Assembly (NCBI GenBank): GCA_030639665.1
Contig: DAOWCC010000003.1
Span: 1-32,625 of the forward strand
Reading direction: 5' to 3'
Length of the DNA stretch: 32,625 bases
Source of the DNA: Elusimicrobiota bacterium
GTDB taxonomy: Bacteria; Elusimicrobiota; Elusimicrobia; Elusimicrobiales; UBA9959
Position 1 is the first letter of the stretch. Each line of letters starts with the position of its first letter. The notes beneath the pieces were generated by a model. It was not told where the DNA came from, searched no databases, and saw only the letters and a program-made list of their open reading frames with translations. Positions 986 through 28,464 of the stretch are shown here, piece after piece. Made by a program: the position numbers and the translations under genes.

Positions 986-1012
986 ATCGACTTTACGGAG
1001 GAGCGTTTGCTT

Positions 1013-3247: not shown

Positions 3248-3315
3248 AAAGGAAGCCGGCAAGTCGTAGAGCGCGGGGCCATTTTTTAGTAAACTGAATA
3301 TATACGGAGGATATT

Positions 3316-4506: not shown

Positions 4507-4529
4507 AATTTGTATTTTCGGTAAATTTT

Positions 4530-5579
4530 ATGATTCCACGAGAATTAGATCTTTGCGTTACAAATAAATGCAATATGAATTGCCTTTATTGCTATGCCGC
4601 CGGAAAAAATTTGGAGAACAAAAGTTTAACGCTTGAGGAAATGAAAAAGGCCGTTCTTATGTATTTTGAAGCCGCATTGTCTGAAAAGAGAAAAATCGAC
4701 AAAATAAGCGTTTCGGGGGGAGAGCCTCTTACTCATTGGGACGCTGTGTCCCGGTTTATTTTGTGGTTTTCAAAGCATACTCCGCAAGATGTAAACGCCG
4801 AAATTTTCACGAACGGTTTGTTATTGGATAAAGATAAGGCCAAGCTTATACTTGATAACGGGTTTAAATTAAGGATAAGTTTTGACGGGCTTAAAAAAAC
4901 TCATGACGCGAGCCGCGTATCCGTTTCGGGAAAATCTTCTTTTGACGGATTTATGAAAAACTTTAATTCTTTCCCTCTTTCTTTAAAGAAACGATGTGAA
5001 GTTGTGCCCATAGTATCGGAAAGAAATGTCGCGGATATGGCGGATAATATGAAGTTTTTGATGGATTTGGGATTTGCTTGCGTTAAGCCTTCTTTTGTTT
5101 TGGATGAAGTGTGGAAAAAGCAATCGTTTAAAATTCTGACCCGGCAATTTGATTTGCTAAAGGAACTTTTAAAAAAGCAAAAAAAATATTCTTTAAAGTT
5201 TGAAAAAATAGCTTTAAAAAATCTCTCCGGCGGCTTAAAGGAATTTTCCGCGTCAAATGAAATATCCGTCGGAACGGATGGCTGGTTTTATCCCTCCTCT
5301 CTGATTTCAGCTTCCGTGGCGGCTAAAAGCGAAGCCTTTAAAAAAAGATACCGCGTGGGAAATATAAACCGGGGCATAGACACGGAAAAATTCGGCAAAT
5401 TGAGGGAGTCTGCTTTTAAAGATATAAAAAAATCAAAAGCGGAGCTTTATTTAGGTTGTCTTCTTTGCATGCACTATAGCTCTAAAGTAAAGAAAGTGGA
5501 TTTTGAAAAACTTCTTCTAAGCGGCGATCAAATAGCTAAAATTACGGCCGCCTCGGGTTTGGGGGAAATTTCCTCTTGA
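4530..5579 (+). CDS. Radical SAM protein (anSME/SPASM-type fold) with a degenerate SPASM region
   Basis: TNKCNMNCLYCY, SGGEPL, FTNGLLL, ISFDG..HD..R. The SPASM-like ISVGTDGWFYPSS...VGNI has Ser where YPC is usual; only a CxxC remains near the end. Confidence 0.8.
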   Translation: MIPRELDLCVTNKCNMNCLYCYAAGKNLENKSLTLEEMKKAVLMYFEAALSEKRKIDKISVSGGEPLTHWDAVSRFILWFSKHTPQDVNAEIFTNGLLLDKDKAKLILDNGFKLRISFDGLKKTHDASRVSVSGKSSFDGFMKNFNSFPLSLKKRCEVVPIVSERNVADMADNMKFLMDLGFACVKPSFVLDEVWKKQSFKILTRQFDLLKELLKKQKKYSLKFEKIALKNLSGGLKEFSASNEISVGTDGWFYPSSLISASVAAKSEAFKKRYRVGNINRGIDTEKFGKLRESAFKDIKKSKAELYLGCLLCMHYSSKVKKVDFEKLLLSGDQIAKITAASGLGEISS

Positions 5580-5617
5580 ACATTTGCCCTTGAATGTTTT
5601 TTAGAGCCAAATTTATC

Positions 5618-7051
5618 ATGAGACATCCGTCCGTTTTACTTATTAAAAGCAGAAGTCTTATCGCTAAAAATACGGGAATCACTCCTCCCTTGGGCATATT
5701 GTATATAGCGGCTTATTTGAGAGAACGATTGAAAGCCGATGTCAAAATTATTGATACCGTCTGGGAAACCGATCCTTTGAACGCTGTTCGCTCCGCTGTC
5801 CGGGAGCAGAATCCCGATATTGTTGGGATAAGCGCTCTTACGGCGGAAGCCTTTTTAGCTCATAAAATCGCGGACGCGGTAAAAAGCGAAAATTCCGGTG
5901 TTCCGGTTATAATGGGCGGGCCCCATCCTTCTTCTCAGCCTGAGTTGGCGATGAATGATAAAAATATTGACGCTCTTATTGTGGGAGAAGGAGAGGTAAC
6001 ATTTTGCGAGCTTCTAAGGGTGATTGTTGAGGAAGGGCATCATTGGAAAAATTCAAAAATTCTGGCCAAAATAGACGGACTGGTTTTTAGAGGCGAAGGC
6101 ATTGAATTTTCAAAATCCAGAGCTCCCATAACTGATTTGGATTCTTTGCCTTTTCCGGCCTGGGACCTTATTGATTATAAAAAGTTTTGGACAAAAGCGA
6201 GCATGGCCACGATTGGCATAAGGCCTTATTTAACAATGTTTACTTCAAGGGGCTGTCCTTATCATTGTGTTTTTTGCCATCAGCTTTTTGGAAAGGTTTT
6301 TCGCGCCAGGTCTCCCGAAAGCGTGGCGGAAGAAGTCAGGCAAATACTTAAAATGGGAGCGAAACATATAGAGGTTTTGGATGATATCTCCAATCTTGAT
6401 CATAATAGATTTAATGGAATGCTTGAACTGATGCTTAAAGATAACTTACATCCCGTTTTAAGTTTTCCAAACGCCATAAGGGCCGATATTATGCGAGAAG
6501 ATTCCATTGATTTGCTTAAAAAAGTGGGCGTGGGAGAAGTTTCAGTGGCTATTGAGACGGCTTCAAATCGTTTGCAAAAATTGATAAAAAAAAATCTTTC
6601 ATTGGATAAGGCGTCAAAAACCATAGAAATGCTGACAAAACGGAGGATTTTTACCCGGGGATTTTTTATGCTGGGCCTGCCGACTGAGACTGAGGAAGAA
6701 ATGCGCTCCACCATTCGCTTTGCCCATAAATCCTCATTGCATCTCGCTTTGTTTTTTACGCCCAATCCTTTCCGCAATACCGAGCTTTACGATATGTTCG
6801 TAAAAGCGGGAAAACTGCCCGATAAATCCAGCACGATAGATTTTGAATATTACGGCTCTCCTTTTAACGCGAGCGAGATTCCCGAAAAAAAATACAGATT
6901 TTTATATAAATGGGCTTATTACGGATTTTATTTTAATATTATCAGGATGTTTCGCATAGCGCGCGACAGGCCTTTATGGTCGGATATTCCTCTTCGCGCT
7001 TATTCCTTGTTTCGCAATATCGTGTCATTTAGGAGATTAAAGGAAAATTGA
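5618..7051 (+). CDS. Cobalamin-binding radical SAM protein (paralog A)
   Basis: PPLGILYIAAYL, GGPHPS, GEGE, DLDSLPFPAWDL, TSRGCPYHCVFC, FFMLGLPTET. Start at ATG5618 or ATG5594. Confidence 0.9.
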   Translation: MRHPSVLLIKSRSLIAKNTGITPPLGILYIAAYLRERLKADVKIIDTVWETDPLNAVRSAVREQNPDIVGISALTAEAFLAHKIADAVKSENSGVPVIMGGPHPSSQPELAMNDKNIDALIVGEGEVTFCELLRVIVEEGHHWKNSKILAKIDGLVFRGEGIEFSKSRAPITDLDSLPFPAWDLIDYKKFWTKASMATIGIRPYLTMFTSRGCPYHCVFCHQLFGKVFRARSPESVAEEVRQILKMGAKHIEVLDDISNLDHNRFNGMLELMLKDNLHPVLSFPNAIRADIMREDSIDLLKKVGVGEVSVAIETASNRLQKLIKKNLSLDKASKTIEMLTKRRIFTRGFFMLGLPTETEEEMRSTIRFAHKSSLHLALFFTPNPFRNTELYDMFVKAGKLPDKSSTIDFEYYGSPFNASEIPEKKYRFLYKWAYYGFYFNIIRMFRIARDRPLWSDIPLRAYSLFRNIVSFRRLKEN

Positions 7052-7052
7052 T

Positions 7053-8585
7053 ATGGCCAATGTTTTGATTATGACGCCGTCTTCTCTTTACAGAAGGTGG
7101 CCCACCACTCCCGATACCACCAAGATGGCCACAAACGCGGCTCCCGTCACAATGCCGCAGCTTGCCGCCGCTTTGCCTAAGCATAATGTTAAAATTCACG
7201 ATGGCAACGCTTATGATATTTCACTCACTGAATACGCCGAATTATTACAATGGGCGGATATTGTCGCCATGAATATCATGAGCTCTTACGCGGCTTTGAA
7301 CAGCGAACTTAATATTCGGTTTATAAAAAAAATAAAGCCTGAAATAAAGGTGATACTTGGCGGTCATCACGCGACTTTTCAGGCGCAGGAATGGCTTTCA
7401 AAGGGGGCGGATGTCGTGGTTAGGCGCGAGGGAGAAATTACGCTGCCGGAAGTTGTGGACGCTTTGATTGAGAAAAAAGATCTCGCGCGGGTATTGGGCA
7501 TTTCTTGGAATTTGCAAGGCGATATTATTCATAATCAGGACCGTCCTTTTATTGAAAATTTGGATTCTTTGCCTTTGCCCAGATGGGATTTAATGAATTT
7601 TGGCAAATATTATTTGTATCTTCGAAAAAAGGGCTATCAGGCCTGTCTTGAAACCAGCAGAGGATGCGAGCAGCATTGCGCGTTTTGCCAGGTGGGCCCG
7701 ATGTGGAAGCATACTCACAGATTCAAATCCGTCGAAAGAGTGAGAGAGGAAATGAGACTGCTTAAGAGCTGCGGGGTTGAACAATTGTTTATCGTTGATG
7801 ACAATTACGGCTCCAATATGGATACCGACAGGCAAGCCGATATATACAAAATGATGCGTAAGGAAAATTTTAATTTTGAGTGGGGCGGATTTTTCAGGCA
7901 TGATTATATTTCATCAAATCATAAACTTCTTAAAGAGGCCGCGGCTACCGGCCTGAAATTCGCCTGCATAGGTTTTGAAAGCGTGGAAGGTTCCGACCTT
8001 AATTCCTTCAATAAAAAAAATTCTTCTTTCAAAAATCTCGATTCATACGCTAAGGAATATGAGTTTTTAAAGAGTCTTGGAATAATCAGTTTTGGTTTTA
8101 TTGTGATAGGCTATCCGGGGCAAAATGAAAGTTCCGCCATCGCAACTCTGGAGAACGCGCATAAATTTTGTAATTATCCCGTGGTTACCCTATATAAGCC
8201 TTTGCCCGGCACCGCCGGTTATATAAAAACGAAAAAAGAAGGCTTGCTGACAAAAAAAATGTTTTATCATGATTCTTTTACCGTGGCCATTAAAGGCACC
8301 AGGCCTATTTTAGCCAAATATAATCGGTTTTTTATCAAGTATTTAATGAGTCCGTCGCGTCTGGTGAAAGGGCTCATGAATAAAAATTGCAGGCCGATAG
8401 AAGTTGTTTTCTTTAAATGGTTTATCGGGGGTATTTTAAGAGCCAATTTTAAAAATGTCGGCGATTTTTTCTGGTTTATTTTTAAAGGCCGTAAATTACA
8501 GGAAGAAAAAGTCATGGAATATTTATGCGAAAATCATCTTTCGGATAAAAATGTTTCCCAACTTGTTAATAAAGCGAAAAAATGA
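7053..8585 (+). CDS. Cobalamin-binding radical SAM protein (BchE-like subgroup, paralog B)
   Basis: GGHHAT, REGE, NLDSLPLPRWDL, ETSRGCEQHCAFC, VDDN, IGFES, PLPGT, MFYHD. Confidence 0.9.
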   Translation: MANVLIMTPSSLYRRWPTTPDTTKMATNAAPVTMPQLAAALPKHNVKIHDGNAYDISLTEYAELLQWADIVAMNIMSSYAALNSELNIRFIKKIKPEIKVILGGHHATFQAQEWLSKGADVVVRREGEITLPEVVDALIEKKDLARVLGISWNLQGDIIHNQDRPFIENLDSLPLPRWDLMNFGKYYLYLRKKGYQACLETSRGCEQHCAFCQVGPMWKHTHRFKSVERVREEMRLLKSCGVEQLFIVDDNYGSNMDTDRQADIYKMMRKENFNFEWGGFFRHDYISSNHKLLKEAAATGLKFACIGFESVEGSDLNSFNKKNSSFKNLDSYAKEYEFLKSLGIISFGFIVIGYPGQNESSAIATLENAHKFCNYPVVTLYKPLPGTAGYIKTKKEGLLTKKMFYHDSFTVAIKGTRPILAKYNRFFIKYLMSPSRLVKGLMNKNCRPIEVVFFKWFIGGILRANFKNVGDFFWFIFKGRKLQEEKVMEYLCENHLSDKNVSQLVNKAKK

Positions 8586-10129
8586 AGAAAAAAAATATTA
8601 TATTAATGAATTCTCTAAGGCTTGCGCCGCGGTTTATGTCCACAAATGAATTTTCGCTTGTTTGGGGCCCTCATCCTTTGGTGACTCTCCCTCTTTTAGC
8701 CACTATGGTTCCCAAAAATTGGAATATTAAATTGTTGGATCCCATTGTTTACAATGTAAAACTGAAAGATTTTGGCTCTTTAATACAGAAAGCCGATGTA
8801 GTGTCAATAACCTGTACGGCTTCAAGTTCAGCTCTCAATACGGAGATGACTATAAAATTAATCAGGCAATTAAGGCCGGATATTCATATTGTGCTTGGCG
8901 GGCATCATTCTTCGTTTTATCCCAAAGAGTGGCTCGAAAAAGGGGCGAGTATTATTGTCAGAGGAGAAGGTGAATATACTTTAAAGGAAATTCTGGAGTC
9001 TATTGAAAAAAATGAAGGCTTTGACAAAATTAAGGGAATATCGTTTATTTCCGGCAATAAAATAATTCATAATCCCGATAGAGAATTAATGCCCGATCTT
9101 GACGCTTTGCCGTTTCCCAGATGGGATTTAATGGATTTTGGGCGTTATAATCAATTCACTCGCAGAAAAGGATTGACTGTGGGGATTGAAACCACGCGCG
9201 GTTGCACGAATAAATGTTCATTTTGTCTGGTTAATAAAATGTGGAAAGGAGAGCAGCGGTATCGCTCTCTTAATAAATCCATGGAAGATATTAAGCGGCT
9301 TTATTCGATGGGAGCAAGGCAATTGGGATTTGTGGGAGACGGTTTTGGCAATCCTCCCGACAGGCATATGGAATTGATGAAAGCCATACAAAAAGAAAAA
9401 ATGGATATTGATTGGATGTCGTTTATGAGGGTTGATTCCATTTTAAAAGAACCCCGTTTAGCCAAAGAAATGGCAAAGGCGGGATGCAAAGCTGTTTTTA
9501 TCGGTTTTGAATCGCCTTTTCAAAACCTGTTAAAAATATGGCAAAAAGGCCCCGACGGTTTGGCGAAAGTTTCAACATATCAAAAAGTTTATGAGCTTTT
9601 GGATAAAGAGGGAATACTTGTTTTTGGATTTTTAATAGTCGGGCATCCCCAAGAGCCTGAAGGAATAGTTCCTAAAATTTTTCGGGAATATCAAAAATGG
9701 TGCGATATTCCTTTGGTAAATGCCATTCAGCCGATGAAGGGAACTCTTGATTATGAGGATTATGAAAAGAAAGATTTATTGGCCAAAGATATGTTTTATC
9801 ATGATATAAGAATTCCGAGTTTGAAAGGTTCAAATAGAAATGTTCATGAGGGTTTAAGTTTGTTCGGTAAGAAAATTATTTTTGAGTTTCCGTTTTATAT
9901 GTTTTCGGCTAAAAAAACAAAAAGACAATTTTTCAGGCATATGTATTTGTTTTTAATAAAGAAACTTCTTGAAACGAATTTGGCCGAGCTTAAAGATTAT
10001 TGGCTATTGCTGAATTTTAATAAAATGTCTCCTTCAGACTTGCAGAACGCGGTAATAAACAGAAATCTTAATCCGAAAAAAATAAGCAAACTCGCGGAAA
10101 AATGCAGAAAAGGATTTAGCGTTTTATAG
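8582..10129 (+). CDS. Cobalamin-binding radical SAM protein (paralog C, related to B)
   Basis: GGHHSS, GEGE, DLDALPFPRWDL, ETTRGCTNKCSFC, IGFES, MFYHD. ATGA/TAA-type overlap with the upstream gene. Confidence 0.9.
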   Translation: MKKKNIILMNSLRLAPRFMSTNEFSLVWGPHPLVTLPLLATMVPKNWNIKLLDPIVYNVKLKDFGSLIQKADVVSITCTASSSALNTEMTIKLIRQLRPDIHIVLGGHHSSFYPKEWLEKGASIIVRGEGEYTLKEILESIEKNEGFDKIKGISFISGNKIIHNPDRELMPDLDALPFPRWDLMDFGRYNQFTRRKGLTVGIETTRGCTNKCSFCLVNKMWKGEQRYRSLNKSMEDIKRLYSMGARQLGFVGDGFGNPPDRHMELMKAIQKEKMDIDWMSFMRVDSILKEPRLAKEMAKAGCKAVFIGFESPFQNLLKIWQKGPDGLAKVSTYQKVYELLDKEGILVFGFLIVGHPQEPEGIVPKIFREYQKWCDIPLVNAIQPMKGTLDYEDYEKKDLLAKDMFYHDIRIPSLKGSNRNVHEGLSLFGKKIIFEFPFYMFSAKKTKRQFFRHMYLFLIKKLLETNLAELKDYWLLLNFNKMSPSDLQNAVINRNLNPKKISKLAEKCRKGFSVL

Positions 10130-10164
10130 AAACCTGTCATGTATATATCTTATAATGATAAGTA

Positions 10165-11589
10165 ATGGCTAAAGTTTTACTTACGACTCCTCCTTGGCTG
10201 CATTTTCACAGCTTGCAGGTATTGTTTCCCAATATTCCGCCTTTAAATCTTCAAATTTTGGCCGGCGTATTGCGTAATGCCGGCCATGAAGTAATGATTG
10301 CCGATATTCAGCATTTGCCGCTTTCAGATAAGAAATTACAGCGGATGATAGAATCATTTCGACCGGATATCATAGGTTTTTCAGTTTCCGAAATTGCCAC
10401 CACTCCCATTGTCGTTGAGATGGCTGCCAAATTGCGCGAGCGATATCCGAATATAAAATGGTTGGCCGGCGGACAAGCCCCCTCATTCAGTCCGGAATTG
10501 TTTTTGGGAAATAATAAGCCTTTTGACGCGGTCGCCTTATATGAAGGTGAAAACACTATCGCGAATATTGTGTCGGCGCTCGCGGCGGGTTCATTGTCCA
10601 AAGATATTCCCGGCGCCGCTTGGCTCGGAGCCGGCGGAAAAATTGAACGCTCCAAAATAGAGCGTTTAATTTGCGATTTGGATAATAGTCCTTTGCCTTA
10701 TGTGGAAGGAACTTTAAAGAGGGCTTATTATTCGGATGGATTTTGCGGAGCCATTGAGACGGCGCGAGGCTGTCCTTTTAAATGTAATTTTTGTCCCGTG
10801 CCGAATTTTTACGGCAATCCCACCAGATATAAATCCGCTAAGCGCATTTTGGAAGAAATAAGGCAATTAAAAGCGAAAGGCGCCACTGAAATAGCTTTCA
10901 ATGATGACTCTTTCGGGACGAGGTTGCAGATTGCTCGAGAAGTTTTTGAAACAATGATTCGCGAGAATATGAAACTTCGTTTCGGACTTCAAATTCGCGC
11001 CGATATCATCGCGGCCAATCCCGACCTTATTGAGCTGGGGGCCAAGGCCGGTCTGGGTTTGGCTGTAGTCGGTTTTGAGGGTTATACCTTGGCCGTGCAA
11101 GCTAAAGCGGATAAAGGCAATTCCGCCGAAATTAATTATGCCGCTTCGCGGATTTTGCGCCGCAATGGAATTTTTGTTTACGGAACACATATATTCGGCG
11201 GTCCCGGCACCTCTTGGCGCGACAATTTTATTACTTTTTTAAAAGGAAGATTCAATTCCGATATTTTTAGGATGACGATTTTTACTCCCGTGCCCGGCTC
11301 GCCTATTTATAATGAACTTTCCAGCGCGAATTATATTGATGTTAGCAATCCAGGCGATTTTTATGAAGGTAAATATCTTATTCCCAATTCTTTTAATCCT
11401 TTTTTGGTGGAGTTTATGTATTTCGGTTTATTGGCTTTGCATTATGCTTTGCCCGACACTTTGTTTAAGGCGCTGTTTCATTCCAATTTGGATTACCGCG
11501 TTTTTCATCGGCGGGCGTATAAAGCGGCGTTTCTATTTGTTATCGGACAAATCGCTTCGCGGTTCAGAAAAAAAAGGTATGAAATATGA
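10165..11589 (+). CDS. Cobalamin-binding radical SAM protein (paralog D)
   Basis: PPLNLQILAG, GGQAPS, YEGE, DLDNSPLP, ETARGCPFKCNFC, NDDSF, VGFEG, TPVPGS. Confidence 0.9.
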   Translation: MAKVLLTTPPWLHFHSLQVLFPNIPPLNLQILAGVLRNAGHEVMIADIQHLPLSDKKLQRMIESFRPDIIGFSVSEIATTPIVVEMAAKLRERYPNIKWLAGGQAPSFSPELFLGNNKPFDAVALYEGENTIANIVSALAAGSLSKDIPGAAWLGAGGKIERSKIERLICDLDNSPLPYVEGTLKRAYYSDGFCGAIETARGCPFKCNFCPVPNFYGNPTRYKSAKRILEEIRQLKAKGATEIAFNDDSFGTRLQIAREVFETMIRENMKLRFGLQIRADIIAANPDLIELGAKAGLGLAVVGFEGYTLAVQAKADKGNSAEINYAASRILRRNGIFVYGTHIFGGPGTSWRDNFITFLKGRFNSDIFRMTIFTPVPGSPIYNELSSANYIDVSNPGDFYEGKYLIPNSFNPFLVEFMYFGLLALHYALPDTLFKALFHSNLDYRVFHRRAYKAAFLFVIGQIASRFRKKRYEI

Positions 11590-13034: not shown

Positions 13035-13035
13035 T

Positions 13036-14469
13036 ATGCCTAAAATTCTGATGTTGCAGCCTGTTAGAATCCATAAACGCTGGCCCGTGCCCGAAGACTT
13101 TACGGGACTTCTCGGCGCTTCGCCGACTCTCGCTTTCGCGCAATTGCGCGCTAAGCTTAAAAATTACGAAGCGGACTATATGGACGGTTTGGCCAGAGAA
13201 TATTCGCTCGCGGAGCTTACTCGGCGCGCGAAAGCGGTTGATGCCGTTCTTATAAACGCCCATTCCAGTGTGGGCGCTCTTAACGCGGAAGCGAATGTCA
13301 GGCATATTTTAGACAATTGTCCCGGCGTTCCGATAATTATGGGAGGCCATCACGCTACGGTTTATGATTTTCAATGGCTTGGGCGCGGAGCGCATTTTGT
13401 CGTGCGCAATGAAGGTGAAGAAACCATCGTTGAATTGCTTGAGGCTATTTTTAAAGGCGGTTCTTATGATGAGATAAAGGGAATTTCATGGCAGGGTCCC
13501 GGCAATGAATTCCACCGTAATCCGCCCAGATCCTTGATTAAGAATTTAGATGATTTGCCCATTCCCGATTGGGGCATCTACGACAAAAAACTTTATCACT
13601 TGCCTTTGCCCATTAAGGGTTATTCAACTACGGCGGAAACTTCCCGAGGCTGTCCTTATCATTGCAGTTTTTGCGCAGCGAGCGAGATGTGGATGCATAA
13701 GCAGAGGTTTAAAAGTCCAGAGAGAGTTTTGGAAGAATTGCGAATTTTAGGCAAGCTGGGTTTTACAAAAATCTGGTTTGCCGATGATAATTTCGGGCAG
13801 GATCCCGAGCGCTATGCCCAAATATACGAGGGCATTCTTAGGGAAAATATGAAGTTCAATTTTGTGGTTTTCATTCGTTCCGATAATATCGTGAAATCGC
13901 CAGAAGTCATGAGGCTTGCTCATCGCGCGGGCATGCGCGTGGCGCTCGTCGGCATTGAAAGCGCCGTGGACCGCCTTCTTACGGATTGTTCCAAGGTCAG
14001 TGAGGCCGAGACCAGCCGGAAAGCGGTTGAGATTTTGCGTGAAATAGGTATTTTCATCGGAGGTTTCCTTATGGTAGGCTACCTCGATGAGAAACAGGAT
14101 GAAACAGACACCACCTTTCGCGCGGCAAATGAGATGACGGATTATCCCATTATATCCATATTCGAACCGCGATTCGGAACAAAAGATTTTGTTCGCGCCA
14201 AAGCCAAATTGGATACGCCGGGCGGCGATATGTTCTATCATAATACCGAACATTTTATTCCGAGTATGGTTCATGTTTTGCCGCAATATAGAGATTTTTA
14301 TAGGCGTTATTTAACTCATCCCAAACAAATAAATAAGCTTTTATTCGGCACTCCGACGCAAAAAAAGTGTTACCGCACTTTGTATATGAATCTGGCAAAA
14401 TCAGTCCTGCGCGTTACTCCCGCCATGCTGGCCAATCCATGGGAAATGACACGGGATATATACAAATAG
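13036..14469 (+). CDS. Cobalamin-binding radical SAM protein (paralog B')
   Basis: KRWP N-terminal motif as in B, GGHHAT, NEGE, NLDDLPIPDW, ETSRGCPYHCSFC, ADDNFG, VGIES, MFYHN. Confidence 0.9.
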   Translation: MPKILMLQPVRIHKRWPVPEDFTGLLGASPTLAFAQLRAKLKNYEADYMDGLAREYSLAELTRRAKAVDAVLINAHSSVGALNAEANVRHILDNCPGVPIIMGGHHATVYDFQWLGRGAHFVVRNEGEETIVELLEAIFKGGSYDEIKGISWQGPGNEFHRNPPRSLIKNLDDLPIPDWGIYDKKLYHLPLPIKGYSTTAETSRGCPYHCSFCAASEMWMHKQRFKSPERVLEELRILGKLGFTKIWFADDNFGQDPERYAQIYEGILRENMKFNFVVFIRSDNIVKSPEVMRLAHRAGMRVALVGIESAVDRLLTDCSKVSEAETSRKAVEILREIGIFIGGFLMVGYLDEKQDETDTTFRAANEMTDYPIISIFEPRFGTKDFVRAKAKLDTPGGDMFYHNTEHFIPSMVHVLPQYRDFYRRYLTHPKQINKLLFGTPTQKKCYRTLYMNLAKSVLRVTPAMLANPWEMTRDIYK

Positions 14470-14529
14470 GTTTCATGATAGTGATGTTTGTTATAAAAAA
14501 ACGATTAACATTTAATGCTATTCTAAAAA

Positions 14530-15843
14530 ATGACAGCTAAGAAAAAATTATCTGAAAAAGTTCTGATTTTGGGCGCCGGTTTAACGGGGCTTAGCGCGGC
14601 TTATAAATTAAAAACGCTCGGCTTTAAAAATGTTTTAGTTTTAGAAAAAGAAAAAAGACCGGGGGGGCTGTTAAAAACCGATAGGAAAGAGGGAGGCGCT
14701 ATAGACCAATTGCCTCATGTTTTTTTCAGCAAGGATAAAACAGTTAAAAGTTTTTTTCTTAAAATGGTCGGAAAAGTTTACAGGCATTCTCATAAACTGG
14801 GGGTTTTGTGGAAAAACGGCTATATTGATTATCCTTTTCAAAACAATATACATCAACTGGAAATAGAGGAAAGAAAAAAAATTCTGAAAGGATTGTTTGA
14901 AAGAAAGCCGCTTAAAAATTTAAAAGCCGGAAATTTTGAAGATTTCGCCGTAAAAACTTTTGGGAACGAATTAACGGAACTGTTTTTCCGGCCCTATAAT
15001 GAAAAGCTTTGGCTGACGCCGCTGAAAAAAATGGATTATAAATGGCTCGCGTCAAAAATAAAAATGCAGGAACCCTCTGAACTTGTTGAAAGCGTTTTGG
15101 GCGCTGAAAATAAAAAAGATAAAGCCGTGGCGCCTCATGCTGAGTTTATTTATCCAAAGAAAGGCGGCATTCAAACGCTTATTGACGGCTTGATTGCCGA
15201 AGTGGGCGCGGATAAAATCAAGCTTGATATTAATATAACCAGGATAGACTCCAAGAAAAAAACGGTTTTCGCGGGAAAAGAAATTTTTCATTACGATAAA
15301 ATCATTTCCACTTTACCTTTAAATGAAGCGGTTAAACTGTCAGGCATGAAAAAGAATGGAAGCGCTTTAAAACGCTTGAAAGCGACAAAGGTTTTTTGCG
15401 TTCAATATGTTCTTAAAAAAATCAATCTTCCCCGGTATCATTGGATATATGTTCCAGGCAAGAAGTTTCCCTTTTATCGCTTAACCAGAGAGGAATTGAT
15501 AAATCCCAAAGCGTTTAAAAATAAAAAAGTTTTGCTGGTTGAATGCGCCATGGGTAAATCCGATTTTCCAAATGAAAAAACTTTTATTAAGGAAATTACT
15601 TCCCATCTCGAAAAGTTAAATATTTTAAAGAGAAAAGACATAGAGCGGATGTGGCATTCCGATCATTTTCCTGCCTATCCCGTTCCGCATTTGAAAGGAG
15701 AGAAGGATATTTCTTTTTGTTTGAATGAGCTTTTAAAAAGGGGAATAATTTCCGCGGGCCGATCGGGAGAATGGTTTATAAAAAATATGGACCATAGCAT
15801 TTTGGCGGGCTTTAAGGCCGCGGGGGAAATTTTAAAAAGATGA
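14530..15843 (+). CDS. FAD-dependent oxidoreductase, UDP-galactopyranose mutase-like / protoporphyrinogen oxidase superfamily
   Basis: Rossmann motif ILGAGLTGLSAA...LEKE..PGGL, plus PHVFF, YPFQNN, FFRPYNEKLW, FIYPKKGG, AYPV and GRSGEW...NMDHS, which resemble the UGM-like flavoproteins of glycan clusters. Confidence 0.75.
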   Translation: MTAKKKLSEKVLILGAGLTGLSAAYKLKTLGFKNVLVLEKEKRPGGLLKTDRKEGGAIDQLPHVFFSKDKTVKSFFLKMVGKVYRHSHKLGVLWKNGYIDYPFQNNIHQLEIEERKKILKGLFERKPLKNLKAGNFEDFAVKTFGNELTELFFRPYNEKLWLTPLKKMDYKWLASKIKMQEPSELVESVLGAENKKDKAVAPHAEFIYPKKGGIQTLIDGLIAEVGADKIKLDINITRIDSKKKTVFAGKEIFHYDKIISTLPLNEAVKLSGMKKNGSALKRLKATKVFCVQYVLKKINLPRYHWIYVPGKKFPFYRLTREELINPKAFKNKKVLLVECAMGKSDFPNEKTFIKEITSHLEKLNILKRKDIERMWHSDHFPAYPVPHLKGEKDISFCLNELLKRGIISAGRSGEWFIKNMDHSILAGFKAAGEILKR

Positions 15844-16787
15844 TTCCGGCGGTGATACTTACGGCGGGGGAAGGTAAACGCCTTGGAAAGATGTCAAAGA
15901 ACTTTTCCAAGAGTTTGCTGACGGTGGGCGATTCCACTTTACTGGCGGGGCATTTAAATAATTTTCTTGAAATCGGAATTAATGAATTTATTATCGTGGC
16001 GGATCCTTTGTCCGAGGATATAGAAAAAGAGGCCCAAAAAGTTCTCAAAAACCGGAAGGCTTCTTTTCGCGTTGTTCATCAGAAAAAAAGATTAGGCATA
16101 GGCCACGCGGCTTTGCTTGCCGAAAAATATATCGGCGAGGGAGAATTTATTCTTGTCTTGGGAGATACTTTTTATTCGCCCGGGGATATTTTAGCCGCCA
16201 TTAAGGAGATAACTTCCGGCTCCGTCGATGCCGTTTTATCGGTGAGAAAAGTTTCCGATGACAAAGAAATACTTAAAGAATGCACCGTTAAGCTTGATGA
16301 AAACAATGTTGTTGAAAAAATAGTTGAAAAGCCCGAGCGGGCCTTGAGCATGATGAAGCCTTGCGGAGTTTATTTTTTTAATCATAAGTTTTTTAAACAT
16401 TTGAAAAAAACTTCGGCATCTTCTTTAAGGGGTGAAATAGAGCTGACTGACGCCATAGATAATTTTGTTCGGGAAGGCGGAATGGTTGTGGCCAGAAATA
16501 CTTTGAAGTTTGATGTTAATATAAATTATCCAAGGGATATATTGGCCGCCAATTTAGCCTGGCTCGCCCAAAAAAAAATAAAATGTTTTTCTCACGCGAG
16601 CGCCGTTATAGGCGAAGACGTTTCGCTTTCTGAAAGCGTTGTGGGCCAAAACAGCCGGATTGGAAAGTTTTCCAAGCTGAGGCGGGTTGTGGTTTTTCCC
16701 GGCAGTGAAGTTTCTCCCAATTCAAATTTGGAAAATATTATTGTTCTGCCGGATATGAAAATTCCGGTTTTGCCGGATGAAAATTAA
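15840..16787 (+). CDS. Sugar-phosphate nucleotidyltransferase (RmlA/GlmU-like NTP transferase with a short C-terminal hexapeptide beta-helix)
   Basis: VILTAGEGKRLG, Q..RLGIGHA, LVLGD, IVEKP, SLRGEIELTDAI, and C-terminal AVIGEDVSLSESVVGQNSRIG repeats. Confidence 0.85.
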   Translation: MIPAVILTAGEGKRLGKMSKNFSKSLLTVGDSTLLAGHLNNFLEIGINEFIIVADPLSEDIEKEAQKVLKNRKASFRVVHQKKRLGIGHAALLAEKYIGEGEFILVLGDTFYSPGDILAAIKEITSGSVDAVLSVRKVSDDKEILKECTVKLDENNVVEKIVEKPERALSMMKPCGVYFFNHKFFKHLKKTSASSLRGEIELTDAIDNFVREGGMVVARNTLKFDVNINYPRDILAANLAWLAQKKIKCFSHASAVIGEDVSLSESVVGQNSRIGKFSKLRRVVVFPGSEVSPNSNLENIIVLPDMKIPVLPDEN

Positions 16788-18243
16788 GATGAAAAAAAAT
16801 ATACTTCTTTTCCAGCCTCGAATCGGCGATATGGATATGTTCCGGGATAAGCCGACGCCTCCCATGGGATTATTATGCGCCTGCTCTCTGGCGAGCCAAA
16901 AATTTGAAATAAGGCTTCTGGACCAGAGGATAAATAGAGATTGGAAAAAAGTTTTAAAAACTCTCATAGATGATAATACGATAGCTATTGGAATCAGCAT
17001 TATGACCGGCGGGATGATTAGCCACGCCCTCAAAGCGGCTTCTGAAATAAGGCGTCTTACAAAAGCTCCGCTTATCTGGGGTGGGGTGCATCCGTCTCTT
17101 TTGCCGGAGCAAACCGTTTTAAACAAATTCGTGGATTATGTGATTGCCGGAGAGGGAGAAGAAGCCTTTGCCAAACTTGTGGAAAAAATTTCCATAAATG
17201 AAAATGCCGATAATATTCCCGGAGTTTGGACCAAGTCAAACGCGCGGATAAAAGAACGCCCTGAGAAACCTTTGCTTGATATGAATAATCTTCCGGGCGT
17301 TCCTCATCATTTGGTGGATATGGAAAAATATGTTCAGACATACCGCGGAAAACGAATGTTTTTTTATCAAGCGAGCAGAGGTTGTCCGTGCCGGTGCTCC
17401 TATTGTTATAACAAGGTGTTTAATTTGGGGCTTTTGCGTTCGGCCGATATTGAAAAAGTTTTGCGGGATTTAAAACAATTGAAGGATAAATACGAGTTTT
17501 CTCTGGTGTATTTTTTGGATGACAATTTTCTTATAGACAAAAAGCGGGCTTTAACTATTTTAAGGGGACTTAAAGAGCTGGGTTTGGGGAGCGTTCTTCA
17601 AGGGGTGGATATAGAGAGTTTGAATCGTTTGTCGGATGAAGAATTGGATTTTTTGGAGGCTTCGGGAGTTGAAAGAATCGCGATAGGGGTTGAATCCGGC
17701 TCAAACAGAATCAGAAATAATATTTTGAAAAAAGAAGGAAGCGTGGAGCTGGCGAGGCGCCAGCTGATTCGTTTTAAAAACAGAAAAATTATCGTTTTAT
17801 TTTCTTTGATGATAGGCTTGCCTTCTGAAACCGCCGATGAAATAAAAGAAACTGTTAAATTCGGCTTGGATATTTTAAAAATGGGGCCTAATTTCAGGAT
17901 ACCTCAGTTTTATATATTTTCTCCCTATCCCGGAACGCTTTTGTTTGAGGAGTTGAAACGCGAAGGCGTAAGTTTTCCGTCAAAGCTTGAGGCTTGGGGA
18001 AAATATGAATGGGATTATTCGCATATGCATGAAAAAAATCCCGGCATTAAGGATTTTTTGGAGAGAGTGGGTTTTTTAAGCAAGTTTTTGGATTCGAAAT
18101 TCGGTGATTATGGTTCCGGTAAAATTCTGAAAATTATCTATGATTTTTATCGTCCCATAGCTTGGTTTAGATTGAGCCGCGGTTTAATGAAGCCTTTGCC
18201 TGAGAAGTTTTTTTACAGCCTATTAAAAAAAATATTCGCCTAA
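16777..18243 (+). CDS. Cobalamin-binding radical SAM protein (paralog E)
   Basis: PPMGLL, WGGVHPS, GEGEE, QASRGCPCRCSYCYN, LDDNF, IGVESGS, MIGLPSET, FSPYPGT. Start at 16777 or 16789. Confidence 0.9.
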   Translation: MKIKMKKNILLFQPRIGDMDMFRDKPTPPMGLLCACSLASQKFEIRLLDQRINRDWKKVLKTLIDDNTIAIGISIMTGGMISHALKAASEIRRLTKAPLIWGGVHPSLLPEQTVLNKFVDYVIAGEGEEAFAKLVEKISINENADNIPGVWTKSNARIKERPEKPLLDMNNLPGVPHHLVDMEKYVQTYRGKRMFFYQASRGCPCRCSYCYNKVFNLGLLRSADIEKVLRDLKQLKDKYEFSLVYFLDDNFLIDKKRALTILRGLKELGLGSVLQGVDIESLNRLSDEELDFLEASGVERIAIGVESGSNRIRNNILKKEGSVELARRQLIRFKNRKIIVLFSLMIGLPSETADEIKETVKFGLDILKMGPNFRIPQFYIFSPYPGTLLFEELKREGVSFPSKLEAWGKYEWDYSHMHEKNPGIKDFLERVGFLSKFLDSKFGDYGSGKILKIIYDFYRPIAWFRLSRGLMKPLPEKFFYSLLKKIFA

Positions 18244-18424
18244 AATTATGTATAGGAATTTCAAGGTTTAGCCACAAAAAGCGCAAAAAGCGCAAAACAA
18301 ATCTCCCCCGGCCCCTCTTTGACAAAGAGGGGAGAAAGAATAAAAGTTCTTCCCCCTTTTGCAAAGGGGGCTAGGGGGATTTTGGCAGGATAAAGAAAAG
18401 TTTAGACCGAAGGTCGGCTAACTT
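18240..18424. mobile_element. Putative non-autonomous element, copy 1, carrying a double G/C-rich hairpin (REP-like)
   Basis: Left end CTAA-AATTAT-GTATAGGAATTTCAA. Hairpins CCCCTCTTTG-A-CAAAGAGGGG (18312-18332) and CCCCCTTT-TGC-AAAGGGGG (18352-18370). Right end GACC-GAA-GGTC-GG-CTAA. Confidence 0.5.
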
Positions 18425-18792
18425 GTCGTATAGGAATTTCAAAGCTATGCTGGGTGCCGTTTTAAAGAGCTATGCTCCTCAGACGGCCAAAGTAGGCGCA
18501 AAAGGAAGGGACACATATACGAATTAAACGCAGAGTTCACAGAGAACATAAAAGCGCAGAGAACGCGAAGGAAGAATAAAAAATAGGAAAAATCTGTAAA
18601 AATCCGCGTCTGTTCGCCACAGTATATTGGCGGGGCAAAAGTTGTTTGGTCGTCCGCATAGCTACCGACACCTTATGAAGCATAGCTTCGTTAATTGTAG
18701 TTTGGGTTTGAGTTTTTAACTCTGCGGACTCTCTGTAAAAAGCTCTGCGTTCTCTGCGTTAAAAAAAGTCGCTACCAAAGGCAGCCTAATTA
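18418..18792. mobile_element. Putative non-autonomous element, copy 2 (tandem with copy 1)
   Basis: Left end CTAA-CTTGTC-GTATAGGAATTTCAA. Imperfect long inverted repeat AACGCAGAG... (18527-18567) / ...CTCTGCGTT (18720-18760). 45-nt core at 18648-18692. Right end GCTACC-AAA-GGCAGC-CTAATT. Confidence 0.55.
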
Positions 18793-19542
18793 TTAGGGCT
18801 GTTGAAAGAAATATTTTTTCCTAAAATATTTAAAAATCGTTTTTAATATTTCAAATAAATACGGCAACGGAGATAGGCTGGAAAATTGGGTTCCGTAATG
18901 AGCTGTTATGGGCAACTGCGCTACGCGAAGTTTTAGTTTTCCCGCGCAAAGCAGCATTTCGCCGTCAAAATGAAATTTATCCGTAAGGGTTTCAAATTTT
19001 ATGGCCCGCAAAGCTTTTAAAGAATATGCCATATATCCCGAATGGTATTCGGCGAAATTTAAATTAAAGATTTTATTTTCAATGAAGGTTATAAGGCGGC
19101 TTGCGAAATATCGGAGTTTGGGCATGCCCTCGCTTAAGGCTTTTCCTGAAATAAGTTTGGAGCCCATTGAAACATCCGCTTTTCCCGTCATCAGAGGCTT
19201 GATTATCCGCGCCATTTCTTCGGGGGCGTATTGTCCGTCGGCATGAAGCAAAACAGAGAATTTACAGCCTGATGAAAGAGACTCTTTTAAGCCGGTTTTC
19301 TGGGCGGCTCCATAGCCTTTATTGGATTTGTGATTGAGCACGATAAAATTTAATTGTAGCTCTTTCCCGGCTTTTTCGGCTTCAATTGAGGTGTTGTCAC
19401 TGCTTCCGTCGTTTATTATTACTATAATTGATGGAGGCAATTCCTTTAAGTGACGATTAAGCCTTGAAAGAGTTTGAAAAATGGTCTTTTCCGCGTTAAA
19501 GGCGGGAATGATTATGGCAAGTTGGGGTTCATTTGAAAACAT
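18793..19542 (-). CDS. Glycosyltransferase family 2 (DPM1/polyprenyl-phosphate glycosyltransferase-like)
   Basis: IIIPAFNAE, INDGSSDNT, NKGYGAAQKTG, LHADGQY, EYHSGYMAYS, FHFDGEML. Probable start ATG at 19542; the longer track start overlaps the divergent gene. Confidence 0.85.
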   Translation of the reverse strand: MFSNEPQLAIIIPAFNAEKTIFQTLSRLNRHLKELPPSIIVIINDGSSDNTSIEAEKAGKELQLNFIVLNHKSNKGYGAAQKTGLKESLSSGCKFSVLLHADGQYAPEEMARIIKPLMTGKADVSMGSKLISGKALSEGMPKLRYFASRLITFIENKIFNLNFAEYHSGYMAYSLKALRAIKFETLTDKFHFDGEMLLCAGKLKLRVAQLPITAHYGTQFSSLSPLPYLFEILKTIFKYFRKKYFFQQP

Positions 19543-19573
19543 GGGATTTGAGTTTAACTGAAATATCAAAAAT

Positions 19574-21166
19574 ATGAATATGTCAAAATTATTTACAAGT
19601 AAAAGCAAAAATTATGAGCTGTTTTTGGTTCTTGTTCCCGCTATTTTTTCCTGCTTGCAATTATACTATATTCAGAATATCTATCTTTATTTCTACATTT
19701 TAAGTGAAACAAGGTCGGCCAAGCTGGTTTTTTTGGCGGTAATTCCTTTGCTTATTTCGGAATTTTTGGCGACAAAATTTTGGGAAGCCTCAAAATACGG
19801 TTGGACCAATCGGGTTAAGGCGGCTTTTTTTGCCCGTTGCGTTATTTTATTCGGCGCGGGGCTGATTTTTTTCTGGTATCCGGTCAAAATGAAAGATTCG
19901 GCCGGTTTAATAGCGCCTTTGATTTGGAGATGGGTTGATGTTGTCAGGATTTCATGGGAGGCCAGTATTTTCCCCGCCTCTTTTTTTCTCATTTTTATTC
20001 TATTTTTTTATTATCAATTTACAGTGAAGAGACGCCTTTTTAGATTTGTTTCCACTTTGTTTATTCCCTTTGTTGCAACGGTTTTGCTTTTTTCGCTTTT
20101 ATATTTTAATCCGACAAGTTTTTTTAGAACATGGAATTTAAAAAGGCCGAGCGAGGTTGAAAGCGTTTTTCCAAAAGAAAATTCGGATTTTAAAAATAAA
20201 TTTTTGCCTCAAGGAGATTTTTTTCCGCATGACTTGTATGTTGAGAAAAACGACGCGTGGGCCATGTTTTCAAACGGGCCGACTTTCAGAAGCGCCAAAG
20301 ATGAAGATAAGCTTAGTTTCTTATGGATAAATTTAAAAAATTTGGAATTCCAAGCTTTTTTGGGAGGGCAGATTCGCAGGTTTTATTCCGAATGTTCCGA
20401 TAAATTTTATTTTTCTCCCTGGCATAAAAGCGTTTTATTTGAATACGCGCCCGGAAGCAAAACTTTTAAAAATATAGATTTGCCGGGAGAGGTGGCCGGA
20501 GAAAAAGTAAAAGAGCTTTTTTCCGTTTATCACGATTGCCAAAATAAAAAAGTTTATGTCGCGAACAATATAAATCCGGCTTTATTTGTTTTAAGCAGTT
20601 TGGATAATAAGCTGGAAAAAAGCCTGTCATTGGTTGGGAAAAACGGCATCAGGCAAGGTTCTCATATCTTTGCGGTTAAGCGAAATCCATTTAGGAAAAC
20701 GATAATTTTATCAATGTATCCGAAATATTCCTTGATTGAGCTTGATGAAAAAACCCTTGCTTTTAAAAATAAAATGGGAGTCATACAGCATAGATGCGCG
20801 TATTTTGATGTGGTTGTGTCTTCCGACGGCAAGTATTTATACGCTCCGGCCATATTTAGAAAACAAATAATGAAATTTAACGCTGAAACCTTTGAGTTGG
20901 TTAAAAAAATTAAATCCGAGCCCCATTGCCGGAAATTGGTTTTTTCAAAGGACGGCAGATGGCTTTTTGCGGTTTCATATTTAACGGGAAAAGTTTTAAT
21001 ATATGATGTCGAATCCGATTCTATGCTGACTTCTTTTTATGTTACTCCCAGAGCTGAAACATTGTATGCTACCGACAAATATCTTTATATAGCGGGAGCG
21101 GAAGGCTTATTCAGAATTTCAAATGAAGCCTTGAATTTTATGGTTCAAAATAATGCGAAGTCTTAG
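19574..21166 (+). CDS. Membrane protein with about 5 N-terminal TM helices and a C-terminal YncE/YVTN-like beta-propeller
   Basis: Hydrophobic segments in the first ~180 aa. Blade repeats KKVYVAN, VVSSDGKYLY, VFSKDGRWLFAVSYLTGKVLIYD and TDKYLYI. Confidence 0.7.
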   Translation: MNMSKLFTSKSKNYELFLVLVPAIFSCLQLYYIQNIYLYFYILSETRSAKLVFLAVIPLLISEFLATKFWEASKYGWTNRVKAAFFARCVILFGAGLIFFWYPVKMKDSAGLIAPLIWRWVDVVRISWEASIFPASFFLIFILFFYYQFTVKRRLFRFVSTLFIPFVATVLLFSLLYFNPTSFFRTWNLKRPSEVESVFPKENSDFKNKFLPQGDFFPHDLYVEKNDAWAMFSNGPTFRSAKDEDKLSFLWINLKNLEFQAFLGGQIRRFYSECSDKFYFSPWHKSVLFEYAPGSKTFKNIDLPGEVAGEKVKELFSVYHDCQNKKVYVANNINPALFVLSSLDNKLEKSLSLVGKNGIRQGSHIFAVKRNPFRKTIILSMYPKYSLIELDEKTLAFKNKMGVIQHRCAYFDVVVSSDGKYLYAPAIFRKQIMKFNAETFELVKKIKSEPHCRKLVFSKDGRWLFAVSYLTGKVLIYDVESDSMLTSFYVTPRAETLYATDKYLYIAGAEGLFRISNEALNFMVQNNAKS

Positions 21167-22335: not shown

Positions 22336-22393
22336 AAATAGCGCGGCAGCGCGGCAGTACTTTGTGTTAAAAAAAAATAAAGGAAAATTTAAA

Positions 22394-27153: not shown

Positions 27154-27181
27154 TTTTTTACGGCGGAAAACAGTTCTCAAA

Positions 27182-27216
27182 CCCCGCGGATATTGTTCCG
27201 CGGGGCTTTTTTATTT
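27182..27216 (+). terminator. Rho-independent terminator
   Basis: CCCCGCGGA-TATTGT-TCCGCGGGG followed by CTTTTTTATTT. Confidence 0.85.
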
Positions 27217-27235
27217 CATTCTTGATCTCAATCAA

Positions 27236-27275
27236 TAGGTCTTATGTCCCATTGATAAATAGGGCTTTACGTTCT
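27236..27275 (+). promoter_or_regulatory. Double palindromic operator of secreted paralog 2
   Basis: TAGGTC-TTAT-GTCCCA (27236-27251) and TAGGGCTTTACGTTCT 24 bp later. Confidence 0.65.
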
Positions 27276-27355
27276 TATGGGGTTGCGTTTGACTATGGTA
27301 AAATATAATTGGATTAGATGCGTTTTTAAAGATTTTAAAAGACAGAGGTGATATT

Positions 27356-28264: not shown

Positions 28265-28292
28265 TTTTTTACGCTGGAAAATAGTTTTCAGG

Positions 28293-28327
28293 CCCCGCGG
28301 ATATTGCTCCGCGGGGTTTTTTTATTT
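28293..28327 (+). terminator. Rho-independent terminator
   Basis: CCCCGCGGA-TATTGC-TCCGCGGGG followed by a T-tract. Confidence 0.85.
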
Positions 28328-28354
28328 CCGTTTAATTCCGGCGCGCAATTTAAG

Positions 28355-28394: not shown

Positions 28395-28464
28395 GGTATT
28401 TGAATTATCGGATTTATTAAAATTAATTACTCAATTAAAAACATCAATAAATGGGAGGTAGTAA

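Follow-up and report, generated by a model that had tools for sequence, protein, structure and literature searches.

What would a sediment bacterium make with seven radical S-adenosylmethionine (SAM) enzymes that depend on cobalamin, encoded almost end to end and followed by genes for sugar activation and glycosyl transfer? The question is raised by a stretch of 32,625 bp (the window), the entire contig C178 of an uncultured member of the Elusimicrobia, whose genome (G000) comprises 2.26 Mb in 276 contigs and is 92.6% complete. An earlier note on this DNA, made from its letters and open reading frames (ORFs), had delimited a block at 4530-21166 and proposed that it builds a methylated or rearranged sugar or lipid core to be loaded onto a lipid carrier. 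The reading favoured here, held with moderate confidence, is that the block serves as an accessory arm, for tailoring and glycosylation, at the distal end of a very large radical SAM cluster that matures an HxsA4-type peptide, a supercluster carried by one family of Elusimicrobia.

Domains were called on the ORFs of the window by Pfam and NCBIfam profile searches at each model's cut-off. In what follows, G numbers other than G000 denote the genomes of relatives, L numbers denote loci, metagenome contigs included, and C numbers denote contigs. Five genes are referred to as the core: those for a flavoprotein resembling UDP-galactopyranose mutase (UGM), a nucleotidyltransferase (NTase), the radical SAM enzyme B7, a family 2 glycosyltransferase (GT2) and a propeller protein. 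Class B (cobalamin-dependent) radical SAM enzymes were assigned from Pfam domains, the CxxxCxxC motif and a tree, and B7 from synteny as well. The block is composed as follows.

4530-5579, + strand: rS0, SPASM/twitch-type radical SAM enzyme, CxxxCxxC at residue 14, B12 domain absent
5594-7051, + strand: B1, class B radical SAM enzyme, orthogroup B1
7053-8585, + strand: B2, class B radical SAM enzyme, orthogroup B2
8582-10129, + strand: B3, class B radical SAM enzyme, divergent sister of orthogroup B2
10165-11589, + strand: B4, class B radical SAM enzyme, orthogroup B4
11586-13034, + strand: B5, class B radical SAM enzyme, paralogue within orthogroup B1
13036-14469, + strand: B6, class B radical SAM enzyme, orthogroup B6
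14530-15843, + strand: UGM-like flavoprotein, amine-oxidase fold, PRK07208-like, core (Pfam, NCBIfam, solved relatives)
15840-16787, + strand: sugar-1-phosphate NTase with left-handed beta-helix (hexapeptide) tail, core (Pfam, NCBIfam, solved relatives)
16777-18243, + strand: B7, class B radical SAM enzyme, core
18244-18792, no strand: non-coding spacer of 549 bp with dispersed repeats (blastn)
18793-19608, - strand: GT2, DPM1/AglJ/PpgS-like, core (Pfam, NCBIfam, solved relatives)
19574-21166, + strand: membrane protein with a 7-bladed YncE-like beta-propeller, core (Pfam, structure model)

Linkage of the block to an HxsA4 cluster

The core keeps the same order in seven related genomes (G002, G017, G007, G363, G390, G320 and G267) and in the metagenome loci L047, L049 and L051. 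Core proteins are 76-83% identical to those of the window in G002, which belongs to the same genus, and 36-62% identical in the other six. In G008, B1, B4, the UGM-like gene, the NTase gene and B7 are followed by the end of a 6-kb contig. Since the core is syntenic across genera, its orthologues are not scattered, and the neighbourhood conservation on which the earlier note had made its proposal depend is borne out. Orthologues of B1, B4, B2 and B6 likewise recur beside the core in G002, G008, G363 and L046 at 47-77% identity, in arrays of varying composition: rS0, B4, B1, B2, two B6 genes, a gene for a CrtI-family flavoprotein and a MiaB-like radical SAM gene in G002; rS0, B1, two CrtI-family genes and B4 in G363; and, in L046 (71% GC), the core and then a further B12 gene with B1, B6, B2 and B4 orthologues at 47-51%, a GT2 homologue being not found there by blastp. 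Genomes of genus g4 carry one long B12 enzyme of about 700 aa instead of the B array. The propeller gene is present in 7 of the family's 46 other genomes and in none of the 354 in the rest of the phylum sample, so that the core unit is a patchy accessory trait.

A precursor was sought by screening 11 loci for conserved small ORFs and then by scanning six frames for at least three His-x-Ser repeats. The small-ORF screen across the 11 loci returned no small ORF in common with the window. All four genus g4 genomes that possess the core, and also L051, encode an HxsA4-type ORF of 103-110 aa, with a Lys-rich start, a conserved leader-like stretch, a hydrophobic helix, S-H-G repeats and a C-terminal ARGGWC. 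The gene lies on the same strand as its neighbours, between a 355-aa gene of no assigned function and the rS0 homologue, and opens the order HxsA4, rS0-like, long B12 enzyme, UGM-like, NTase, B7, with spacings of about 96, -4 and 23 nt, then overlaps. In total, rS0 orthologues (34-81% identity) occur in seven related loci, directly after the HxsA4 gene in four of them.

In G000 itself, the components of an Hxs cluster are encoded on contig C48, where HxsA4 (4937-5311; NF038313, 63 bits against a cut-off of 55) and HxsB (1941-3410; 469.6 bits against 370) are both recognised at their cut-offs. The contig reads HxsD-like gene (1469-1972), HxsB, a 376-aa gene, HxsA4, a HemN-like gene on the other strand and an HxsC-like gene. 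HxsA4-like genes are found in 70 of 79 other genomes of the family, in all 13 genera.

Two relatives connect such a cluster with the block. A single contig of G363 carries HxsD, HxsB, a gene of no assigned function, HxsA4 and about 11 kb of HxsB-, HxsC- and SPASM-type genes, and continues with YgeY, an HxsC-like gene, rS0, B1, CrtI, CrtI, B4 and the core, 3′ of which lie an HxsC-like gene and OTCase-fold, carbamate-kinase-like and ThrC-like genes. In G002, the last 618 bp of C2 align to window positions 3306-3923 and the first 1.27 kb of C38 to 4324-5572; the junction of the two contigs thus falls within ygeY, and rS0 and the B array directly continue a 26-kb Hxs cluster. When the proteins of G002 are used to order their G000 orthologues, they give C48, C170 reversed, C62 reversed and the window, with the two parts of one SPASM gene at the end of C48 and at the end of C170. 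The contig order C48-C170-C62-window is thereby inferred for G000; C62 also encodes a class-V aminotransferase. Together the four contigs span 58,228 bp, or 2.6% of the genome, and hold 24 of its 49 above-cut-off Radical_SAM matches.

In G001, from the same genus as the window, HxsA4 has next to it a tandem of three genes for SPASM-type radical SAM proteins, each about 700 aa long (C157, locus L058, 2198-8459), and a propeller match was not found in that genome. This arrangement is another variant of the supercluster.

Enzymes of the block

The run of six B12-dependent radical SAM genes and the seventh further downstream, which the earlier note had described, are present at or near the positions it gave. 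All seven proteins contain both Pfam domains, B12-binding (PF02310, 42.3-87.1 bits; cut-off 32.1) and Radical_SAM (PF04055, 38.4-82.7 bits; cut-off 29.5), and each has one CxxxCxxC motif, at residues 203-221. The range given for the block begins one gene before this run, and its first gene, rS0, is of a different type. Genome-wide, 7 of the 11 B12-binding-domain matches fall in the B1-B7 stretch and 10 of the 49 above-cut-off radical SAM matches in the window, and the density of B12 radical SAM genes here is far above chance. The genes are tightly packed, with a gap of 1 nt between B1 and B2, an overlap of 4 nt between B2 and B3, a gap of 35 nt before B4, an overlap of 4 nt between B4 and B5, a gap of 1 nt before B6 and a gap of 60 nt before the flavoprotein gene. 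The overlaps noted earlier for the last three genes of the run measure 4 nt (flavoprotein/NTase) and 11 nt (NTase/B7). Rfam models at their gathering thresholds gave no match in the window, hence no riboswitch within the block.

The seven proteins are a diverse set. B1 and B5 are 65% identical, B2, B3 and B6 are mutually 31-35% identical, and the remaining pairs share 23-32%. A quick maximum-likelihood tree resolves the clades B1 (with B5 of the window inside), B2, B4, B6, B7 and the long form, each with SH-aLRT support of 99-100; B3, found solely in the window, is a divergent sister of the B2 clade (SH-aLRT 88). B7 is the sole B12 enzyme common to every related locus. None of the seven reaches the cut-off of a characterised class B subfamily, among them BchE, HpnJ, HpnR, PhpK, protein glutamine C-methyltransferase (QCMT) and the C-methylases of peptides that are ribosomally synthesised and modified after translation (RiPPs); their best NCBIfam scores (BchE, HpnJ, HpnR, PhpK) are 106-162 bits, against cut-offs of 251-775 for the matched models. 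Solved relatives are weak: CysS and TokK for B2, and 9CCB for B1 (E 2.1e-17) and B7 (E 3e-13). PoyB/PoyC and Mmp10 are cobalamin-dependent radical SAM C-methyltransferases that act on peptides or proteins. We know of no characterised pathway with seven cobalamin-dependent radical SAM enzymes in one run. According to the accessible text of a 2026 review (PMC12931638), 9CCB is QCMT. B1-B7 and QCMT have the domain architecture and the CxxxCxxC motif in common; as a difference, B1 and B7 resemble it weakly in sequence (E 2e-17 to 3e-13).

rS0 has neither a B12 domain nor an N-terminal extension. Its best solved relative is 5wgg (E 4.6e-16, aligned to chain residues 98-284), which places it closest, from its sequence, to peptide-modifying SPASM maturases, although it lacks their recognition domain. 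It is not HxsB (68.4 bits against a cut-off of 370), which is not encoded in the window.

The flavoprotein aligns over its full length with UGM of the eukaryotic type (4dsg, 3ukk and others; for 4dsg, E 6.9e-44, query residues 6-435 against chain residues 7-452). Five sequence blocks (YPFQNN, RPYN, YPxxGG, PFYR and GRxGxW) are kept in the flavoprotein, the 4dsg alignment and the cluster-linked orthologues. His63, Arg317 (in FYR) and YPFQ are invariant in nine aligned UGM-like sequences, and the Arg of RPYN is present in the seven cluster-linked sequences and lost in two paralogues; we take these residues to be the substrate-binding and flavin-loop positions of UGM. The flavoprotein reads LPH in the flavin loop where 4dsg has GGH, and it fails the bacterial UGM model TIGR00031, which it matches in the N-terminal part only, with 44.1 bits where the cut-off is 303.75. 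The label UGM-like that the earlier note had attached to it holds because of the full-length alignment to 4dsg, although TIGR00031 failed; membership of the true UGMs goes beyond what the sequence supports. UGM-like paralogues of about 30% identity occur in 37 of the 41 genomes of the order sample, G000 among them. The NTase is nearest to archaeal dual sugar-1-phosphate nucleotidylyltransferases and RmlA, by NCBIfam and by solved relatives.

That a GT2 and a propeller protein follow B7 was claimed correctly, with the qualification that the GT2 gene is on the minus strand and is preceded by the 549-bp spacer. The 271-aa GT2 (PF00535, 75.8 bits; cut-off 23.3) has an archaeal dolichol-phosphate mannose synthase, 5mlz, as its best solved relative, and its domain is that of the polyprenyl-phosphate sugar synthases (DPM1, AglJ, PpgS, ArnC). 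It differs from them in its small size and in scoring 68-70 bits against curated cut-offs of 325-370 (AglJ 69.6, cut-off 325; PpgS 68.3, cut-off 370). In the window and in every relative that possesses it, the GT2 gene runs opposite to both of its neighbours. At its 5′ end it touches the 5′ end of the propeller gene or overlaps it, by 35 nt in the window (with a TTG start) and 13 nt in G002, so that two divergent promoters must sit inside coding sequence. The spacer itself recurs in 77 further blastn matches spread over dozens of G000 contigs, of which the longest covers 527 bp at 82% identity on C204; it looks like a family of small mobile or REP-like elements. The gap between B7 and GT2 is not conserved, being 5 nt in G002.

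A structure model of the propeller protein, built from eight orthologues (pLDDT 75.9, pTM 0.78), comprises about six N-terminal helices and a 7-bladed propeller. A Foldseek search with this model returned generic 7-bladed propellers only, YncE first, with no match for the membrane part and no GT-C-like fold; a protein atlas likewise offered YncE-like leads only (0.83, below its more-than-lead level). Among 1.84 billion representatives, the propeller family comprises about 26 full-length clusters (50% identity, E ≤1e-68) and about nine distant ones. Pfam scans and Foldseek recognised no flippase, polymerase or GT-C-type transferase in the block. A polyferredoxin-like membrane protein with three Fer4_5 stretches is encoded within or beside the core at L014 (G007:C17, 5844-6989) and has homologues of 47-48% identity in the metagenome loci L049, L051 and L052; it may serve as an electron donor for the radical SAM enzymes.

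Genes on either side of the block

The other features of the window are the following.

110-985, + strand: PEP-utilizers-domain protein (ORF listing and Pfam)
1007-3247, + strand: HemN-like radical SAM protein, 746 aa (Pfam Radical_SAM, 120.1 bits in two stretches)
3316-4506, + strand: YgeY-family M20 hydrolase (TIGR03526, 545.6 bits; cut-off 321.5)
21322-22335, + strand: OTCase-fold gene (ORF listing and Pfam)
3′ of the OTCase-fold gene, within 21322-23479, + strand: carbamate-kinase-like gene (264 bits; cut-off 358)
23780-24787, + strand: HxsC-like radical SAM enzyme, probable companion (HxsC4 102.6 bits, HxsC 87.3 bits; cut-offs 500 and 267.9)
3′ of the HxsC-like gene, + strand: threonine-synthase-family gene, then others (ORF listing and Pfam)
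26290-27153, 27356-28264 and 28465-29304: three tandem paralogues of 287, 302 and 279 aa with signal-peptide-like starts

Three of these genes probably or possibly belong with the block. The HemN-like protein, which falls below the cut-offs of the STM4012, HutW and HemN NCBIfam families, is a probable companion, and homologues of 34-47% identity are found in the same clusters of relatives; the HxsC-like gene has orthologues of 53-58% identity in relatives' clusters. The YgeY hydrolase stops 23 nt upstream of rS0, so that the absence of a peptidase claimed earlier is correct inside the block and ends just outside it. In G001, G002 and G363 its gene is next to the block or to the Hxs cluster, and YgeY is possibly a component of the system or possibly a flanking marker. 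YgeY and the OTCase-fold and carbamate-kinase-like genes that flank the block correspond to E. coli ygeY, ygeW and yqeA, which lie side by side in a cluster linked to purines or selenium. That the block might be an island, inserted between ygeY and a ygeW-like gene, is made less likely by YgeY itself travelling with the Hxs cluster in those three genomes, and also by the GC content along the window, which has no sharp boundary.

The OTCase-fold protein is 97.6% identical to its G002 counterpart, compared with 55-83% for the block genes and 85% for YgeY; either a much stronger constraint or a recent exchange would account for this. The PEP-utilizers protein consists of the mobile domain only and lies directly upstream of the HemN-like gene, an odd pairing with no obvious role. 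The three paralogues at 26290-29304 have no Pfam family and a C-terminal block common to all three, and in G007 a homologue of 46% identity (L014:245-1216) adjoins the propeller gene; exported partners of the system, or its targets, may be encoded here. The window or part of it appears in nine rows of DNA sequencing runs, from four studies labelled as cold seep or marine sediment metagenomes, and the same run listing contains no RNA run with it.

Possible targets, rival pathways and meaning of the linkage

The homology of the NTase, the flavoprotein and the GT2 is consistent with the succession of NDP-sugar synthesis, ring conversion and DPM1-like transfer that was proposed earlier. In the favoured reading, the NTase would make a nucleoside diphosphate (NDP) sugar and the UGM-like flavoprotein would turn it into the furanose form, both steps being supported by homology. 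B7 probably acts on this nucleotide sugar, because it is translationally coupled to the two enzymes and always present, and would C-methylate or otherwise radically tailor it. The GT2 would then probably place the sugar onto polyprenyl phosphate, and the membrane-anchored propeller protein probably acts there, at the membrane, together with this lipid-linked sugar. Synteny points to the exported Ser/His/Gly-rich HxsA4 repeat peptide, or a product derived from it, as the final target. This peptide would be matured by HxsB- and HxsC-like enzymes encoded on the neighbouring contigs, and rS0 and the variable B1-B6 would add modifications, most likely C-methylations, on peptide or sugar. HxsA4 or its product is suggested as the target because block and Hxs cluster are connected in two distinct ways, and the likeness of rS0 to peptide maturases also points to it. 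QCMT as the best solved relative of B1 and B7 would likewise count toward a peptide or protein target.

Several points weigh against this reading. The six-frame scan of the window returned no His-x-Ser repeat, so that in G000 the linkage depends on synteny that bridges three assembly gaps. In L046, the 10 kb to either side contain no HxsA, in addition to the missing GT2 homologue. HxsA4 is near-universal in the family and the propeller gene patchy, and the block is thus not needed for basic HxsA4 maturation. The scores of HxsC (87.3 and 102.6 bits for the gene of the window, 89.9 and 103.6 bits for that of C48; cut-offs 267.9 and 500) and HxsD (42.8 bits; cut-off 50) are below cut-off. Block and Hxs genes could be adjacent because radical SAM genes are regulated together, and not because they have a substrate in common; the NTase, the UGM-like enzyme and the GT2 are typical of envelope-glycan genes; and a lipid substrate is hinted at by the CrtI-family flavoproteins that G002 and G363 have in their arrays. 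"Methyltransferase" is for B1-B7 simply the commonest chemistry of the class, since all seven are far below curated subfamily cut-offs, and the linkage, target and chemistry of the block are predictions from its genes. As for the precursor peptide that was noted as missing, its absence holds for the window and does not extend to the system: HxsA4 is encoded in the same operon in four relatives and L051, and on C48 in G000. The step from a missing precursor and peptidase to a sugar or lipid core accordingly fails, given HxsA4 in relatives' operons, HxsB and HxsA4 on the linked C48 and the maturase-like rS0.

The most serious competitor, though a less likely one in our judgement, is an autonomous surface-glycan or glycolipid pathway, in which the NTase, the UGM-like enzyme and the B12 enzymes would make a heavily C-methylated furanose, the GT2 would transfer it onto a polyprenyl carrier and the Hxs cluster would be a mere neighbour. 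The same envelope-glycan homologies, the patchiness of the block beside a near-universal HxsA4 and the core with B array but no nearby HxsA in L046 all speak for it, and the UGM-like paralogues in most genomes of the order sample suggest a general use of furanoses. It fits poorly with the block-Hxs junction, which in genus g4 directly follows HxsA4 and in genera g1 and g12 lies at the distal end, behind YgeY, with the likeness of rS0 to peptide maturases and with the failure to recognise a flippase, polymerase or GT-C-type transferase in the block. We consider improbable a second pathway, in which the B12 enzymes would methylate isoprenoid or acyl carbons of a lipid that CrtI-like desaturases also modify and the GT2 glycosylates. 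The CrtI-family flavoproteins that would suggest it (TIGR02734, 209-211 bits against a cut-off of 238.1; 4rep and 4dgk, E about 1e-35) are encoded within the G002 and G363 arrays, but the window has no CrtI-like gene. Two SQS_PSY genes are present elsewhere in G000 (C247:4966-5706 and C274:15371-16228), but a squalene-hopene cyclase (SQHop_cyclase_C) was not found in this 92.6% complete genome. The weak matches to HpnR, HpnJ and ladderane-lipid models are, like those to every lipid-related B12 model, far below cut-off, and such a pathway would leave the conserved UGM-like/NTase pair and the HxsA4 link unexplained. The set does not map onto hopanoid or bacteriochlorophyll tailoring, the known pathways that the earlier note had named as examples: HpnJ, HpnR and BchE score 49-162 bits against cut-offs of 481-650, and neither the cyclase nor ALAD was found.

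Tetrapyrrole or cofactor tailoring, which the earlier note had offered as its alternative on account of the BchE-like and HemN-like members, is disfavoured and appears very improbable. BchE is indeed the top NCBIfam match of B1, B5 and B6 (132-162 bits) and HemN-like genes are nearby, but the scores are far under the BchE cut-off of 481, a NifH-like reductase is absent nearby, and ALAD and CbiC were not found in G000, so that no de novo tetrapyrrole route is detected at its level of completeness. One cobalamin riboswitch, on C7 (4307-4441), suggests that B12 is sensed and probably scavenged; with 11 B12-binding-domain genes and neither ALAD nor CbiC found, the organism probably depends on scavenged corrinoids. 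The radical SAM-rich clusters of groundwater Elusimicrobia to which the earlier note had pointed are a different type of locus, which the accessible parts of the preprint (bioRxiv 10.1101/765248, 2020) define by nifHDK paralogues. Those loci resemble the present cluster, as far as these parts describe them, in phylum and in many radical SAM genes, some with B12-binding or HemN_C domains; the cluster studied here differs in having no NifH-like gene nearby, and G000 has none. A link to nitrogenase paralogues was rejected, the NifH model giving only weak matches in G000 (28 and 19 bits) and none near the cluster in five relatives.

The favoured reading, an accessory arm on an HxsA4 cluster, finds its nearest described counterpart in HXS, which the accessible text of one paper (Nat Commun 2026, PMC13128918) presents as a four-gene antiphage defence whose genes are arranged as HxsD-HxsB-HxsC-HxsA in 99.6% of systems, 99.7% of all systems being in Pseudomonadota, with matured HxsA periplasmic in E. 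coli. Compared with that text, the Elusimicrobia cluster is alike in placing a His-x-Ser repeat protein beside HxsB- and HxsC-type radical SAM enzymes and a small HxsD-like protein. It is unlike HXS in the gene order on C48, in an HxsA4 of 103-127 aa with at least a dozen tandem S-H-G repeats (counted) and an ARGGWC end, in being near-universal in its family, and in its roughly two dozen radical SAM genes, B12 enzymes and nucleotide-sugar module. PADLOC gave only superfamily-level radical SAM matches (viperin models, PDC-M51A), with a 2023 library that misses even true HxsB. Literature searches, figures and supplements being outside their scope, returned no paper joining cobalamin-dependent radical SAM enzymes, UDP-galactopyranose mutase and a gene cluster; for the Hxs names they returned only the HXS defence paper, its preprint and incidental mentions, and for Elusimicrobia, RiPPs, radical SAM enzymes and B12 nothing on this cluster in the titles and abstracts of the matches listed. 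A B12 radical SAM and sugar arm on a His-rich-repeat-peptide cluster is a combination that was not found described.

It has to be presented as a tentative and rather doubtful extension that about two dozen radical SAM enzymes, seven of them B12-dependent, act on one exported Ser-His-Gly peptide, and that the furanose/lipid-carrier module is added to give a poly-C-methylated, cross-linked and O-glycosylated peptide, which is a product class not seen before. By analogy, such a peptide could form a periplasmic barrier against phage DNA, as in E. coli HXS, or a metal-binding component of the envelope. If the linkage is true, the four-gene HXS antiphage system has a far larger relative, which joins the same kind of repeat peptide to B12-dependent radical chemistry and to glycosylation through a lipid carrier. 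A concrete candidate substrate would thereby come into view for five or more uncharacterised orthogroups of class B radical SAM enzymes, and this may be the first UGM-like mutase and nucleotidyltransferase to work within a cluster for peptide maturation. The burden on the organism is striking: some 58 kb contain about half of its radical SAM genes, and seven B12 enzymes are maintained on apparently scavenged corrinoids.

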